Part shown: in pieces, positions 46,620-48,811 of the stretch
Layout: each line of letters opens with the position of its first letter
How positions within the stretch are numbered: the stretch's first letter is position 1
Source: Escherichia coli
GTDB taxonomy: Bacteria; Pseudomonadota; Gammaproteobacteria; Enterobacterales; Enterobacteriaceae
DNA: 64,000 nucleotides
Strand: one strand, 5' to 3'
Assembly (NCBI RefSeq): GCF_003334255.1
Contig: NZ_QOWU01000013.1
Translations under genes and position numbers: made by a program
The notes under the pieces: model-generated
What the model was told of the DNA's origin: nothing
Database searches by the model: none
The model's input: the letters and a program-made list of their open reading frames with translations, nothing else

Positions 46620-47771
46620 ATGTCACTTGTCACCGATCTACCCGCCATTTTCGATCAGTTCTCTGAAGCTCGCCAGAAAGGCTTTCTCACCGTCATGGAT
46701 CTCAAGGAGCGCGGCATTCCGCTGGTTGGCACCTACTGCACCTTTATGCCGCAAGAGATCCCGATGGCAGCCGGTGCAGTTGTGGTTTCGCTCTGTTCCA
46801 CCTCTGATGAAACCATTGAAGAAGCCGAGAAAGATCTGCCGCGCAACCTCTGCCCGCTGATTAAAAGCAGCTACGGCTTCGGCAAAACCGATAAATGCCC
46901 CTACTTCTACTTTTCTGATCTGGTGGTCGGTGAAACCACCTGCGACGGCAAAAAGAAAATGTATGAATACATGGCGGAGTTTAAGCCTGTTCATGTGATG
47001 CAGTTACCGAACAGCGTTAAGGACGATGCCTCGCGTGCATTGTGGAAAGCCGAGATGCTGCGCTTGCAAAAAACGGTAGAAGAACGTTTTGGGCACGAAA
47101 TTAGCGAAGATGCTCTGCGCGATGCCATTGCGCTGAAAAACCGCGAACGTCGCGCACTGGCTAATTTTTATCATCTTGGGCAGTTAAATCCTCCGGCGCT
47201 TAGCGGCAGCGACATTCTGAAAGTGGTTTACGGCGCAACCTTCCGGTTCGATAAAGAGGCGTTGATCAATGAACTGGATGCAATGACCGCCCGCGTTCGT
47301 CAGCAGTGGGAAGAAGGCCAGCGACTGGACCCGCGTCCGCGCATTTTAATCACCGGCTGCCCGATTGGCGGCGCAGCAGAAAAAGTGGTGCGCGCGATTG
47401 AAGAGAATGGCGGCTGGGTTGTCGGTTATGAAAACTGCACCGGGGCGAAAGCGACCGAGCAATGCGTGGCAGAAACGGGCGATGTCTACGACGCGCTGGC
47501 GGATAAATATCTGGCGATTGGCTGCTCCTGTGTTTCGCCGAACGATCAGCGCCTGAAAATGCTCAGCCAGATGGTGGAAGAATATCAGGTCGATGGCGTA
47601 GTTGATGTGATTTTGCAGGCGTGCCATACCTACGCGGTGGAATCGCTGGCGATTAAACGTCATGTGCGCCAGCAGCACAACATTCCTTATATCGCTATTG
47701 AAACAGACTACTCCACCTCGGATGTCGGGCAGCTCAGCACCCGCGTCGCGGCCTTTATTGAGATGCTGTAA
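46620..47771 (+). CDS. yjiM: 2-hydroxyacyl-CoA dehydratase-like (HgdB-like) protein, function unknown
   Basis: 383 aa from the ATG at 46620 (MSLVTDLPAIFDQFSEARQKGF); conserved cysteines; followed by the activator-like ATPase yjiL. Confidence 0.85.
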   Translation: MSLVTDLPAIFDQFSEARQKGFLTVMDLKERGIPLVGTYCTFMPQEIPMAAGAVVVSLCSTSDETIEEAEKDLPRNLCPLIKSSYGFGKTDKCPYFYFSDLVVGETTCDGKKKMYEYMAEFKPVHVMQLPNSVKDDASRALWKAEMLRLQKTVEERFGHEISEDALRDAIALKNRERRALANFYHLGQLNPPALSGSDILKVVYGATFRFDKEALINELDAMTARVRQQWEEGQRLDPRPRILITGCPIGGAAEKVVRAIEENGGWVVGYENCTGAKATEQCVAETGDVYDALADKYLAIGCSCVSPNDQRLKMLSQMVEEYQVDGVVDVILQACHTYAVESLAIKRHVRQQHNIPYIAIETDYSTSDVGQLSTRVAAFIEML

Positions 47772-47780
47772 GGAGTGGCA

Positions 47781-48548
47781 GTGGCATATTCGATTGGCAT
47801 TGATTCCGGCTCAACCGCCACCAAAGGGATCTTACTGGCAGACGGCGTGATTACGCGCCGTTTCCTCGTTCCAACCCCCTTTCGCCCGGCAACAGCAATT
47901 ACTGAAGCCTGGGAAACTCTGTGCGAAGGGTTAGAAACAACGCCGTTTCTGACGCTCACCGGCTACGGACGGCAACTGGTGGATTTTGCCGATAAACAGG
48001 TGACGGAAATCTCCTGTCACGGGCTGGGCGCACGGTTTCTTGCGCCAGCAACGCGCGCAGTAATCGACATCGGTGGGCAGGACAGCAAAGTGATTCAGCT
48101 TGATGACGACGGTAACCTGTGCGATTTCCTGATGAATGACAAATGCGCGGCGGGCACCGGGCGTTTCCTGGAGGTGATCTCGCGCACGCTTGGCACCAGC
48201 ATCGAGCAACTCGACAGCATTACCGAAAATGTCACGCCGCACGCGATCACGAGTATGTGTACGGTGTTTGCCGAATCAGAAGTGATCAGCCTGCGCTCAG
48301 CGGGCGTCGCGCCAGAAGCGATTCTCGCTGGAGTGATTAACGCGATGGCGCGGCGGAGTGCCAATTTCATTGCTCGTCTCTCCTGTGAAGCGCCGATTCT
48401 GTTTACTGGTGGCGTTAGTCATTGCCAGACGTTTGCCCGGATGTTGGAAACTCACCTGGGAATGCCGGTAAATACCCATCCTGATGCGCAATTTGCTGGC
48501 GCAATTGGCGCAGCGGTAATTGGTCAACGAGTGAGAAAACGCCGATGA
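47781..48548 (+). CDS. yjiL: BadF/BadG/BcrA/BcrD-type ATPase (dehydratase-activator-like)
   Basis: About 255 aa; N-terminal YSIGIDSGSTATKG acetate/sugar-kinase-fold ATPase motif; GTG start at 47781, 5 nt after an AGGAG ribosome-binding site (47775 also possible). Confidence 0.85.
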   Translation: MAYSIGIDSGSTATKGILLADGVITRRFLVPTPFRPATAITEAWETLCEGLETTPFLTLTGYGRQLVDFADKQVTEISCHGLGARFLAPATRAVIDIGGQDSKVIQLDDDGNLCDFLMNDKCAAGTGRFLEVISRTLGTSIEQLDSITENVTPHAITSMCTVFAESEVISLRSAGVAPEAILAGVINAMARRSANFIARLSCEAPILFTGGVSHCQTFARMLETHLGMPVNTHPDAQFAGAIGAAVIGQRVRKRR

Positions 48549-48811
48549 AAGAGTTTTTATTTTTATTTCACTCCACGGTCGGCGTCATACAAACCCGTAA
48601 GGCGTTGCAGGCAGCGGGCATGACTTTTCGCGTCAGCGATATTCCCCGTGATTTACGCGGCGGCTGCGGGTTATGCATTTGGCTGACCTGTCCGCCCGGC
48701 GAGGAAATACAATGGGTGATCCCTGGGCAGACCGAAGCGATATATTGCCAGCAGGGCAGCGACTGGCAGTGCGTGGTGCATTACGATTCAGAAGCGTCAA
48801 CCAGGCAATAA
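48545..48811 (+). CDS. Small cysteine-containing protein, possibly Se/S-carrier-like (DUF3343)
   Basis: 88 aa; start overlaps the yjiL stop (ATGA); GGCGLC motif. Family assignment is from memory and not verified. Confidence 0.45.
   Translation: MKEFLFLFHSTVGVIQTRKALQAAGMTFRVSDIPRDLRGGCGLCIWLTCPPGEEIQWVIPGQTEAIYCQQGSDWQCVVHYDSEASTRQ

Follow-up and report, generated by a model that had tools for sequence, protein, structure and literature searches.

Double-cubane cluster proteins (DCCPs) hold an [8Fe-9S] cluster on six cysteine ligands, with a seventh cysteine beside the cluster, and an adjacent gene for an archerase-type ATP-dependent reductase is counted among the marks of the family. YjiM of Escherichia coli was assigned together with CHY_0487 to the seven-cysteine "cluster IV" by Jeoung, Martins and Dobbek, who also noted its association with YjiL and proposed YjiM as the representative of "class II" DCCPs (PMC7317905). 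Bioinformatic surveys have tied the family to selenium. Haft and Gwadz reported that SelD-positive genomes hold 955 of 970 NF040772 proteins (bioRxiv 10.1101/2022.07.06.499078), and Kountz and Balskus drew DCCP and its reductase (DCCP-R) within selenium-associated methyltransferase clusters (PMC10418091). The same holds for DUF3343, a family with one highly conserved cysteine proposed by Lin et al. (2015, PMC5322559) to act as selenium/sulfur (Se/S) chaperone; among the partners in their STRING table for Slackia are both a "CoA-substrate-specific enzyme activase" and one "2-hydroxyglutaryl-CoA dehydratase subunit", and Kayrouz et al. found duf3343 in the top five genes overlapping selD. Here we describe a locus in which both families meet, yjiM-yjiL-ytiA, located in a 64,000-nucleotide stretch of E. 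coli DNA (contig NZ_QOWU01000013.1, hereafter the window). The three genes behave as a self-contained, probably translationally coupled cassette, and we tentatively propose that they could encode an ATP-driven reductase of very low potential coupled to selenium/sulfur trafficking through YtiA as a dedicated carrier.

To describe conservation we took 80 genomes, each species being represented by a single locus with a YjiM orthologue (52-97 % identity, flanks up to 8 kb), and searched the open reading frames (ORFs) of each locus using YjiL and a DUF3343 hidden Markov model (HMM) built by iteration. Nine of the loci are gammaproteobacterial and 71 come from other groups, almost all Firmicutes; word-indexed searches with YjiM and YtiA had returned only Enterobacteriaceae in the top 120 matches, and the other phyla were reached via an exhaustive search of representatives. 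One gammaproteobacterial locus, from E. albertii, could not be assessed because its contig ends just past yjiL. The order DCCP-activase-DUF3343 was present in all eight remaining gammaproteobacterial loci (Escherichia, Superficieibacter, Citrobacter, Cedecea, a soil metagenome-assembled genome (MAG), Hafnia, Morganella and Aeromonas). The offset of the DUF3343 start from the activase stop is -4 nt in Escherichia, Superficieibacter, Citrobacter, the MAG and Morganella, -1 nt in Cedecea and -11 nt in Hafnia, and in Aeromonas, where only an extended ORF was called, DUF3343 lies directly downstream of the activase. Klebsiella pneumoniae has the same three-gene arrangement with overlap, and the 9-nt spacing between yjiM and yjiL recurs in nearly all gammaproteobacterial loci and in Klebsiella. 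The flanks, on the other hand, differ: mdtM-yjiN upstream and yjiK downstream in E. coli, DUF2164 and DUF2955 in Klebsiella, while in Hafnia paralvei (L011, 7098-13770) rluA and lptD flank the cassette, which thus occupies a site unlike either of the other two. Because order and overlap are kept while the flanks change, we regard the trio as a self-contained cassette, and its genes appear to relocate as a block. The preliminary description of this locus had suggested a three-gene translationally coupled unit, which the conserved order and start/stop overlap support. We also considered yjiN (DUF445) and mdtM as members of the cassette and rejected both, as Escherichia, Citrobacter, Superficieibacter, one MAG and Klebsiella are the only places where they adjoin it; in Hafnia, Morganella and Aeromonas they do not.

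The three genes are consecutive (Table 1), and RefSeq annotates all of them at exactly these coordinates in E. coli ATCC 11775 (NZ_CP033092.2), whose record is 100 % identical across window positions 46400-49100. Of 5426 complete E. coli genomes, 5325 match this interval over 80 % or more of its length. The coordinates, the 88-amino-acid (aa) ORF, the ATGA overlap at 48545 and the GGCGLC motif given in the preliminary description could all be read from the sequence and from RefSeq. The first three bases of the ATGA are the start codon of ytiA and the last three the stop codon of yjiL, and the AAGGAG Shine-Dalgarno sequence of yjiL overlaps the yjiM stop (TAA followed by GGAG). Called mechanically, the yjiM ORF reaches up to a GTG at 46599, and the RefSeq ATG at 46620 is preceded by GGAAGGA; for yjiL such calling gives an in-frame alternative GTG at 47775, and the RefSeq GTG at 47781, with AAGGAG upstream, is a putative start.

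Regarding regulation, an Rfam scan of 46300-49200 at E <= 1 found no RNA family, hence no riboswitch or leader. Scans for sigma-70 promoters and intrinsic terminators gave counts equal to the shuffle expectation and so do not help to delimit the transcript; no terminator was found within the cassette. The best intergenic matches to the FNR box (TTGATnnnnATCAA) upstream of yjiM had three mismatches, and one site with two mismatches lies at -214, inside yjiN. In E. coli O157:H7, yjiM was reported to be induced with frd, nrf and nrdDG on oxygen exhaustion (PMC2241611).

Table 1. Features of the yjiM-yjiL-ytiA locus and its surroundings (window coordinates).
Feature	Position	Strand	Details	RefSeq annotation
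yjiM	46620-47771	+	ATG start, 383 aa	double-cubane-cluster-containing anaerobic reductase
yjiL	47781-48548	+	GTG start, 255 aa, stop TGA 48546-48548	putative 2-hydroxyacyl-CoA dehydratase activator YjiL
ytiA	48545-48811	+	ATG 48545-48547, 88 aa	DUF3343 domain-containing protein; ytiA in many E. coli genomes
yjiM stop / AAGGAG Shine-Dalgarno / yjiL GTG junction	47769-47783	+	9-nt spacer; sequence read	
ytiA/yjiL ATGA start/stop overlap	48545-48548	+	sequence read; probable translational-coupling junction	
GGCGLC motif of YtiA, residues 39-44	48659-48676	+	Cys41 codon 48665-48667	
Divergent 3' end of ytiA	48755-48811			
Region upstream of pentapeptide-repeat gene	48812-49122			
Pentapeptide-repeat (espX6-like) gene	49123-51216		697 aa	
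Tandem repeat in pentapeptide-repeat gene	50938-51117		24 nt, 7.5 copies	
mdtM-yjiN-yjiM-yjiL	43951-48548			

YjiM scored 532.2 bits against NF040772 (cut-off 350), covering model positions 1-372 of 372, and matched PF06050 at E = 7.7e-122. In the alignment with the Carboxydothermus DCCP (PDB 6ENO/7YYL, E = 5.9e-75), YjiM residues 26-383 fall on 62-421, and each of the seven motif cysteines (C40, C59, C78, C108, C273, C302 and C335) is aligned to a cysteine of 6ENO. Their spacings (X18, X18, X29, X164, X28, X32) are a few residues off those of the published seven-cysteine DCCP motif (PMC7317905), owing to short deletions, and in an alignment of 32 diverse homologues (33-49 % identity) all seven were invariant or at least 90 % conserved. 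The N-terminal extension that closes the channel in the Carboxydothermus enzyme is missing from YjiM, which is therefore placed in class II. With yjiL as the adjoining archerase-type reductase gene 9 nt downstream, YjiM displays every DCCP feature that could be tested (family score, seven-cysteine motif and adjacent reductase gene). It is predicted to be a homodimer-type double-cubane [8Fe-9S] protein and the catalytic electron acceptor of the system. The preliminary description had seen in YjiM a single dehydratase-type subunit and had made its proposal depend on the presence of cluster-binding cysteines; indeed there is one HGD-D-type subunit with the motif cysteines in place and no second core, and homodimer-type DCCP is the more precise term.

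A metagenomic protein of 722 aa (P0242) carries a YjiM-like DCCP domain (51 % identity, residues 1-383) together with a C-terminal PucR-type helix-turn-helix domain (PF13556, E = 4.7e-14). We rejected this protein as a fusion of all three cassette products (722 = 383 + 255 + 84 aa) given its domain content; it might be a DCCP-derived sensor or regulator, or an artefact of gene calling.

YjiL scored 361 bits against TIGR00241 (cut-off 125) and matched PF01869 (BcrAD_BadFG) at E = 2.5e-75. It aligned end to end with 4EHT (HadI) and 1HUX (HgdC) at E ~3e-52 and with the DCCP reductase 7YYL_E at 4.6e-47. C122 (NDKCAAGTG) and C160 (CTVFAESE) align with identical motifs in HgdC and HadI; cysteines of this type we take, from the 1HUX structure, to be the ligands of the bridging [4Fe-4S] cluster. 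The HMM score, the ASKHA fold signature and the two predicted [4Fe-4S]-bridging cysteines per monomer identify YjiL as an activase, in keeping with its earlier description as an ASKHA-type activator of dehydratases or benzoyl-CoA reductases. It is predicted to be a homodimeric ASKHA ATPase with a dimer-bridging [4Fe-4S] cluster, homologous to DCCP-R, which would inject low-potential electrons through ATP hydrolysis as enzymes of its type do.

YjiL also figures in the literature on proline-rich antimicrobial peptides. Krizsan et al. (2015), as cited in PMC8801401, treat 'yjiL-mdtM' as one cluster affecting peptide uptake, and reviews write 'MdtM/YjiL' as for a transporter; the genes concerned are mdtM-yjiN-yjiM-yjiL. 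Because YjiL is a predicted cytoplasmic ATPase reductase, the uptake phenotype most likely belongs to MdtM alone.

YtiA matched Pfam PF11823 (Se_S_carrier, "putative Se/S carrier", formerly DUF3343) at E = 4.3e-13 and 49 bits, its residues 4-59 covering model positions 2-57 of 69, and no matching model was found in NCBIfam. The Pfam match and the single highly conserved cysteine, C41, are the features of the DUF3343 family. Orthologues across Enterobacteriaceae are 54-99 % identical, and the gene is under purifying selection, with a ratio of nonsynonymous to synonymous substitution rates (dN/dS) of 0.08-0.12 over the first 66 codons against five orthologues (from Citrobacter, Superficieibacter and others). 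An alignment of 18 enterobacterial sequences has 21 invariant positions, among them those of a block DIPRxLRxGCGL; C41 is invariant and C44 at least 90 % conserved. When 29 gammaproteobacterial and Firmicute sequences are compared, only F8, C41 and G42 are invariant and P34 nearly so, the conservation of C44 being confined to Enterobacteriaceae. The conserved core consists of residues 1-66, and the C-terminal ~20 residues are variable. The AlphaFold2 model (predicted local distance difference test, pLDDT, 88.7; predicted template-modelling score, pTM, 0.78) has a ferredoxin-like beta-alpha-beta-beta-alpha-beta-beta topology, with residues 33-42 as the loop before strand 3 and C41 at the loop-strand junction. 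YtiA is thus modelled as a ferredoxin-like domain of ~66 residues in which the invariant C41 ends an exposed loop. No solved homologue came up in the PDB, whether YtiA or the DUF3343 profile served as the sequence query, and structure searches matched only generic ferredoxin-like folds. Carriage of selenium or sulfur by members of the family, as its name has it, is hypothesised, and the idea in the preliminary description that the small ORF could be such a carrier agrees with the family to which it is assigned. A literature search for E. coli ytiA turned up only the unrelated B. subtilis ytiA (L31 paralogue).

The 3' end of ytiA is a hot spot of divergence. Megablast similarity of most E. coli genomes stops at 48755, and most of them encode an 85-aa YtiA with another tail, while the window has the 88-aa form. 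The break coincides with the edge of an espX6-like insertion region, where a pentapeptide-repeat gene is inserted between ytiA and a yjiK-like gene. The GC content of this gene is 35 %, against ~54 % for the cassette, and its O157:H7 counterpart, 90-91 % identical, is annotated as the type III secretion system effector EspX6. The espX6-like gene is present in 639 of the 5426 complete E. coli genomes, and its tandem repeat encodes (S/N)DS(I/T)(E/D)KQA units.

Outside the Gammaproteobacteria, DUF3343 was found within 8 kb of the YjiM orthologue in 14 of the 71 loci, in at least five architectures, and in eight of the 14 it directly adjoins the DCCP or activase gene (gap <160 nt, same strand). 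The expectation that the small ORF is conserved downstream of yjiL homologues was therefore correct for all eight assessable gammaproteobacterial loci, but elsewhere it holds for this minority only, and rarely in the same position. We identified the arrangements NifS-YedF-DUF3343-DCCP (L059, L063, L076), an additional DCCP paralogue with DUF3343 and then the activase behind it (L035, L039, L061, L079), DUF3343-activase-DCCP with overlaps (L082) and DCCP-activase-NifS-DUF3343 (L081), and looser arrangements of DUF3343 and DCCP in five loci (L022, L027, L040, L060, L064). The existence of several arrangements argues against a single inherited accident. In the four loci with a second DCCP, this longer paralogue (~425-450 aa, 237-270 bits to YjiM) lies just upstream of DUF3343 and beside the YjiM orthologue, and DUF3343 is therefore tied to more than one DCCP subfamily. 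Altogether 23 DUF3343 genes were found in ~1.2 Mb of flanking DNA, which by an estimate made without a formal null model far exceeds chance for a family with few copies per genome.

Neighbouring ORFs were also clustered free of any hypothesis and annotated with NCBIfam (top 14 clusters, 10 annotated). The activase was found within 8 kb in 54 of the 80 loci, followed by DUF3343 (22 loci), NifS-type cysteine desulfurases (16), ATPases of ATP-binding cassette or energy-coupling factor (ABC/ECF) type (15) and YedF, a "sulfurtransferase-like selenium metabolism protein" (11). PatB-family C-S lyases gave a cluster total of 10, of which seven Firmicute loci are real and three are gammaproteobacterial yjiR-type aminotransferases. 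LysR regulators were found in nine loci, a corrinoid protein, its reductive activase and MtaA-like methyltransferases (corrinoid Mlp clusters) in eight each, and SelD in five. The PatB-family gene (TIGR04350, 491 bits for the copy in L016) stands directly beside the DCCP gene in six loci (L016, L019, L032, L067, L068, L070), three of which (L032, L068 and L070) have a pair of ABC/ECF-type transporter ATPase genes immediately upstream. We take this to be a second context that recurs separately from NifS-YedF-DUF3343, and it too points to possible organosulfur or organoselenium substrates. All three independently sampled Firmicute DUF3343 genes were located in selD-selA-selB-LysR-NifS-(YedE-TusA)-DUF3343 operons. 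These neighbourhood data agree with the published bioinformatics linking DUF3343 and DCCPs to selenium.

Based on predicted families and gene context, we favour, tentatively, a reading in which ATP hydrolysis by YjiL would drive a low-potential electron into the [8Fe-9S] cluster of YjiM. YtiA, presumably made from the same message as YjiM and YjiL, would bind selenium or sulfur on Cys41, as perselenide or persulfide, and bring it to the active site of YjiM or take it away from there, as gene neighbourhoods and literature suggest. Because YtiA would have this role, the system might mobilise selenium (sulfur less likely) under anoxia from a form for which strongly reducing electrons are required; the induction of yjiM on oxygen exhaustion fits such a setting. 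Candidate substrates would be Se(0)/perselenide or an organo-Se/S compound, and the product would be selenide routed towards SelD. The very negative Se(0)/HSe- couple would rationalise an ATP-energised reductase. More specifically, YjiLM-YtiA could be an unrecognised route of selenium (or sulfur) mobilisation that supplies SelD under anoxia, either by converting Se(0) or protein-bound perselenide to selenide or by cleaving C-Se or C-S bonds, with a variant in which YtiA installs a selenium bridge in the double cubane; in this specific form we consider the idea possible, though rather doubtful.

Several observations weigh against a Se/S-trafficking function. DUF3343 was not detected within 8 kb in 57 of the 71 non-gammaproteobacterial loci, none of the three sampled sel-operon DUF3343 genes has a DCCP nearby, and two sampled long class I-type DCCPs have no DUF3343 nearby. 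On this evidence DUF3343 is primarily a selenium-operon gene, with DCCP and activase as a recurrent yet facultative partner. In E. coli no selenium gene is among the annotated neighbours of the cassette, and no selenocysteine (TGA read-through) variant of DUF3343 at the conserved cysteine occurs in the 89 loci scanned. Sulfur stays a candidate, as Lin et al. saw no DUF3343 subfamily specific to selenium (PMC5322559), and the characterised DCCP reduces acetylene, hydrazine and azide without selenium (PMC7317905). In the literature searched, neither a description of the yjiM-yjiL-ytiA cassette as such nor experiments on YtiA were found.

YtiA might instead act in maturation or repair, supplying the mu2-sulfide (or selenide) bridge between the two [4Fe-4S] cubanes of YjiM; the NifS encoded beside DUF3343 and DCCP in Firmicutes would then be the source of selenium or sulfur for cluster assembly, like NifS/NifU for nitrogenase. 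Such a role would fit the ~10 DCCP loci in which DUF3343 adjoins NifS-type desulfurases, as well as the tight translational coupling to the reductase, which suggests stoichiometric co-production. Moreover, a selenium-bridged 2x[4Fe-4S] cluster was listed by Haft as a formal possibility explaining the co-occurrence of DCCP and SelD (bioRxiv 10.1101/2022.07.06.499078), and in the HAD and TudS relatives a [4Fe-5S] remnant, with an extra sulfur, persists (PMC11971306). We nevertheless regard this role as unlikely, as the DCCPs without DUF3343 nearby (the 57 orthologues and the sampled class I proteins) and the sel operons that hold DUF3343 without any DCCP both speak against it. The Carboxydothermus DCCP expressed in E. 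coli has an intact [8Fe-9S] cluster (PMC7317905), although the YtiA of the host could have helped, and the [8Fe-9S] cluster of BzdN was refined with sulfur (PMC11971306).

A similarly low probability is given to a conventional enzyme acting on a CoA ester or another large substrate, with YtiA as an accessory subunit, for instance a regulator or a redox/thiol partner, that would not transfer selenium or sulfur. YjiM has no N-terminal channel-closing helices, and a CoA ester or larger substrate was thought more likely by the authors who noted it (PMC7317905). The closest characterised relatives are HadC, BzdN and BcrC, and the fold of YtiA is as close to PII/ACT-type regulatory domains as to metallochaperones. 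However, YjiM scored far below the cut-offs of the equivalog models (bits/cut-off: HadC 95/700, BzdN 79/454, BcrC 60/421, HadB 20/750), and no second HGD-D-type gene for another core subunit was found in the cassette or within 6 kb. CoA-transferase, CoA-ligase and acyl-CoA dehydrogenase are absent from the top 14 clusters of recurrent neighbours (10 of them annotated) in the 80 loci; the recurrent neighbours are by our reckoning all Se/S-trafficking or C-S lyase genes, and no CoA-transferase or CoA-ester pathway gene is among the annotated neighbours in E. coli. YjiM thus has neither the heterodimeric core, nor the equivalog score, nor the CoA-pathway neighbours of a 2-hydroxyacyl-CoA dehydratase. 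That the only invariant YtiA side chain of note is a cysteine we also count against an accessory subunit of this kind.

The notion that the 88-aa ORF is a chance or decaying frame, with yjiM-yjiL alone as the functional unit, can draw on the poorly conserved C-terminal ~20 residues, the 85-aa and 88-aa forms, the end of megablast homology at 48755 and the missing NCBIfam match, but it is rejected by the conservation data and has a negligible probability given the Pfam match (E = 4.3e-13), dN/dS of ~0.1, the 21 residues invariant in 18 enterobacterial sequences, a position and overlap kept out to Hafnia and Morganella (and directly downstream in Aeromonas too), and a confident AlphaFold2 model (pLDDT 88.7). 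The probability left over from Se/S trafficking and these alternatives goes to functions beyond those considered.

As an object the locus is already known: the three genes are annotated, YjiM and YjiL stand in the DCCP literature, and DCCPs and DUF3343 have been tied to selenium bioinformatically. The preliminary description had called yjiM-yjiL an orphan pair of uncharacterised function. The latter part stands, as the biological function of DCCPs was still called unknown in a 2025 paper (PMC11971306); that description had missed the existing annotation of all three genes and the naming of YjiM and YjiL as a class II DCCP system (PMC7317905). What we add is modest. The gammaproteobacterial cassette, with exactly one gene each for DCCP, reductase and DUF3343, is conserved, relocatable and probably translationally coupled, and the DCCP-DUF3343 link recurs elsewhere in several independent architectures; no annotation is changed by this and a specialist would not be surprised. 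Still, the physiological role of homodimeric DCCPs has been open since 2018, and DUF3343 has been a 'Se/S chaperone' only bioinformatically since 2015. The cassette is compact and has no other partners, so that the question whether DCCPs act on selenium or sulfur can be put cleanly, by genetics and biochemistry, in E. coli. If the proposed function is true, homodimeric DCCPs and DUF3343 would each gain a first physiological role, and this in E. coli. Should the selenium link hold, an ATP-driven, nitrogenase-like step would be added to selenium metabolism and the near-universal co-occurrence of DCCP and SelD explained; should it fail, the 'large substrate' hypothesis for class II would gain.

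Among the known systems, the DCCP/DCCP-R pair of Carboxydothermus hydrogenoformans (CHY_0487/0488; 6ENO, 7YYL; Jeoung & Dobbek 2018, 2022) belongs to the same families as YjiM/YjiL and follows the same two-component logic. The N-terminus of YjiM is ~36 residues shorter, as in class II, and the channel is presumably open. The E. coli cassette has a third, coupled DUF3343 gene, which was missing from the two long class I-type loci sampled (CHY_0487 was not one of them). HgdAB/HgdC, HadBC/HadI, BzdNOPQ and BcrABCD share with YjiM/YjiL the superfamily of both proteins and the ATP-driven electron injection by a [4Fe-4S]-bridged ASKHA protein, and BzdN, of a class I benzoyl-CoA reductase, also contains an [8Fe-9S] cluster. 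The dehydratases and benzoyl-CoA reductases, however, have two different core subunits, CoA esters and CoA-transferase or ligase genes as neighbours, whereas YjiM has one subunit type and Se/S gene neighbours in other genomes. The DUF3343 proteins of selenium-utilisation operons (Lin et al. 2015) are of the same family and size as YtiA and have the same single conserved cysteine in a GCG motif. They are encoded with sel, yedEF and NifS genes, whereas the gammaproteobacterial DUF3343 is coupled to the DCCP reductase pair, and the enterobacterial proteins add a near-invariant second cysteine (C44) and a variable C-terminal tail. TusA and YedF (SirA-like) are likewise small Se/S carriers with a single cysteine, proposed or shown, and are often encoded beside DUF3343; for YtiA, carriage is putative. 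YtiA has no sequence relationship to them and is predicted to be ferredoxin-like, with its cysteine ending the beta2-beta3 loop, a setting that presumably differs from the CPxP-helix arrangement of TusA.

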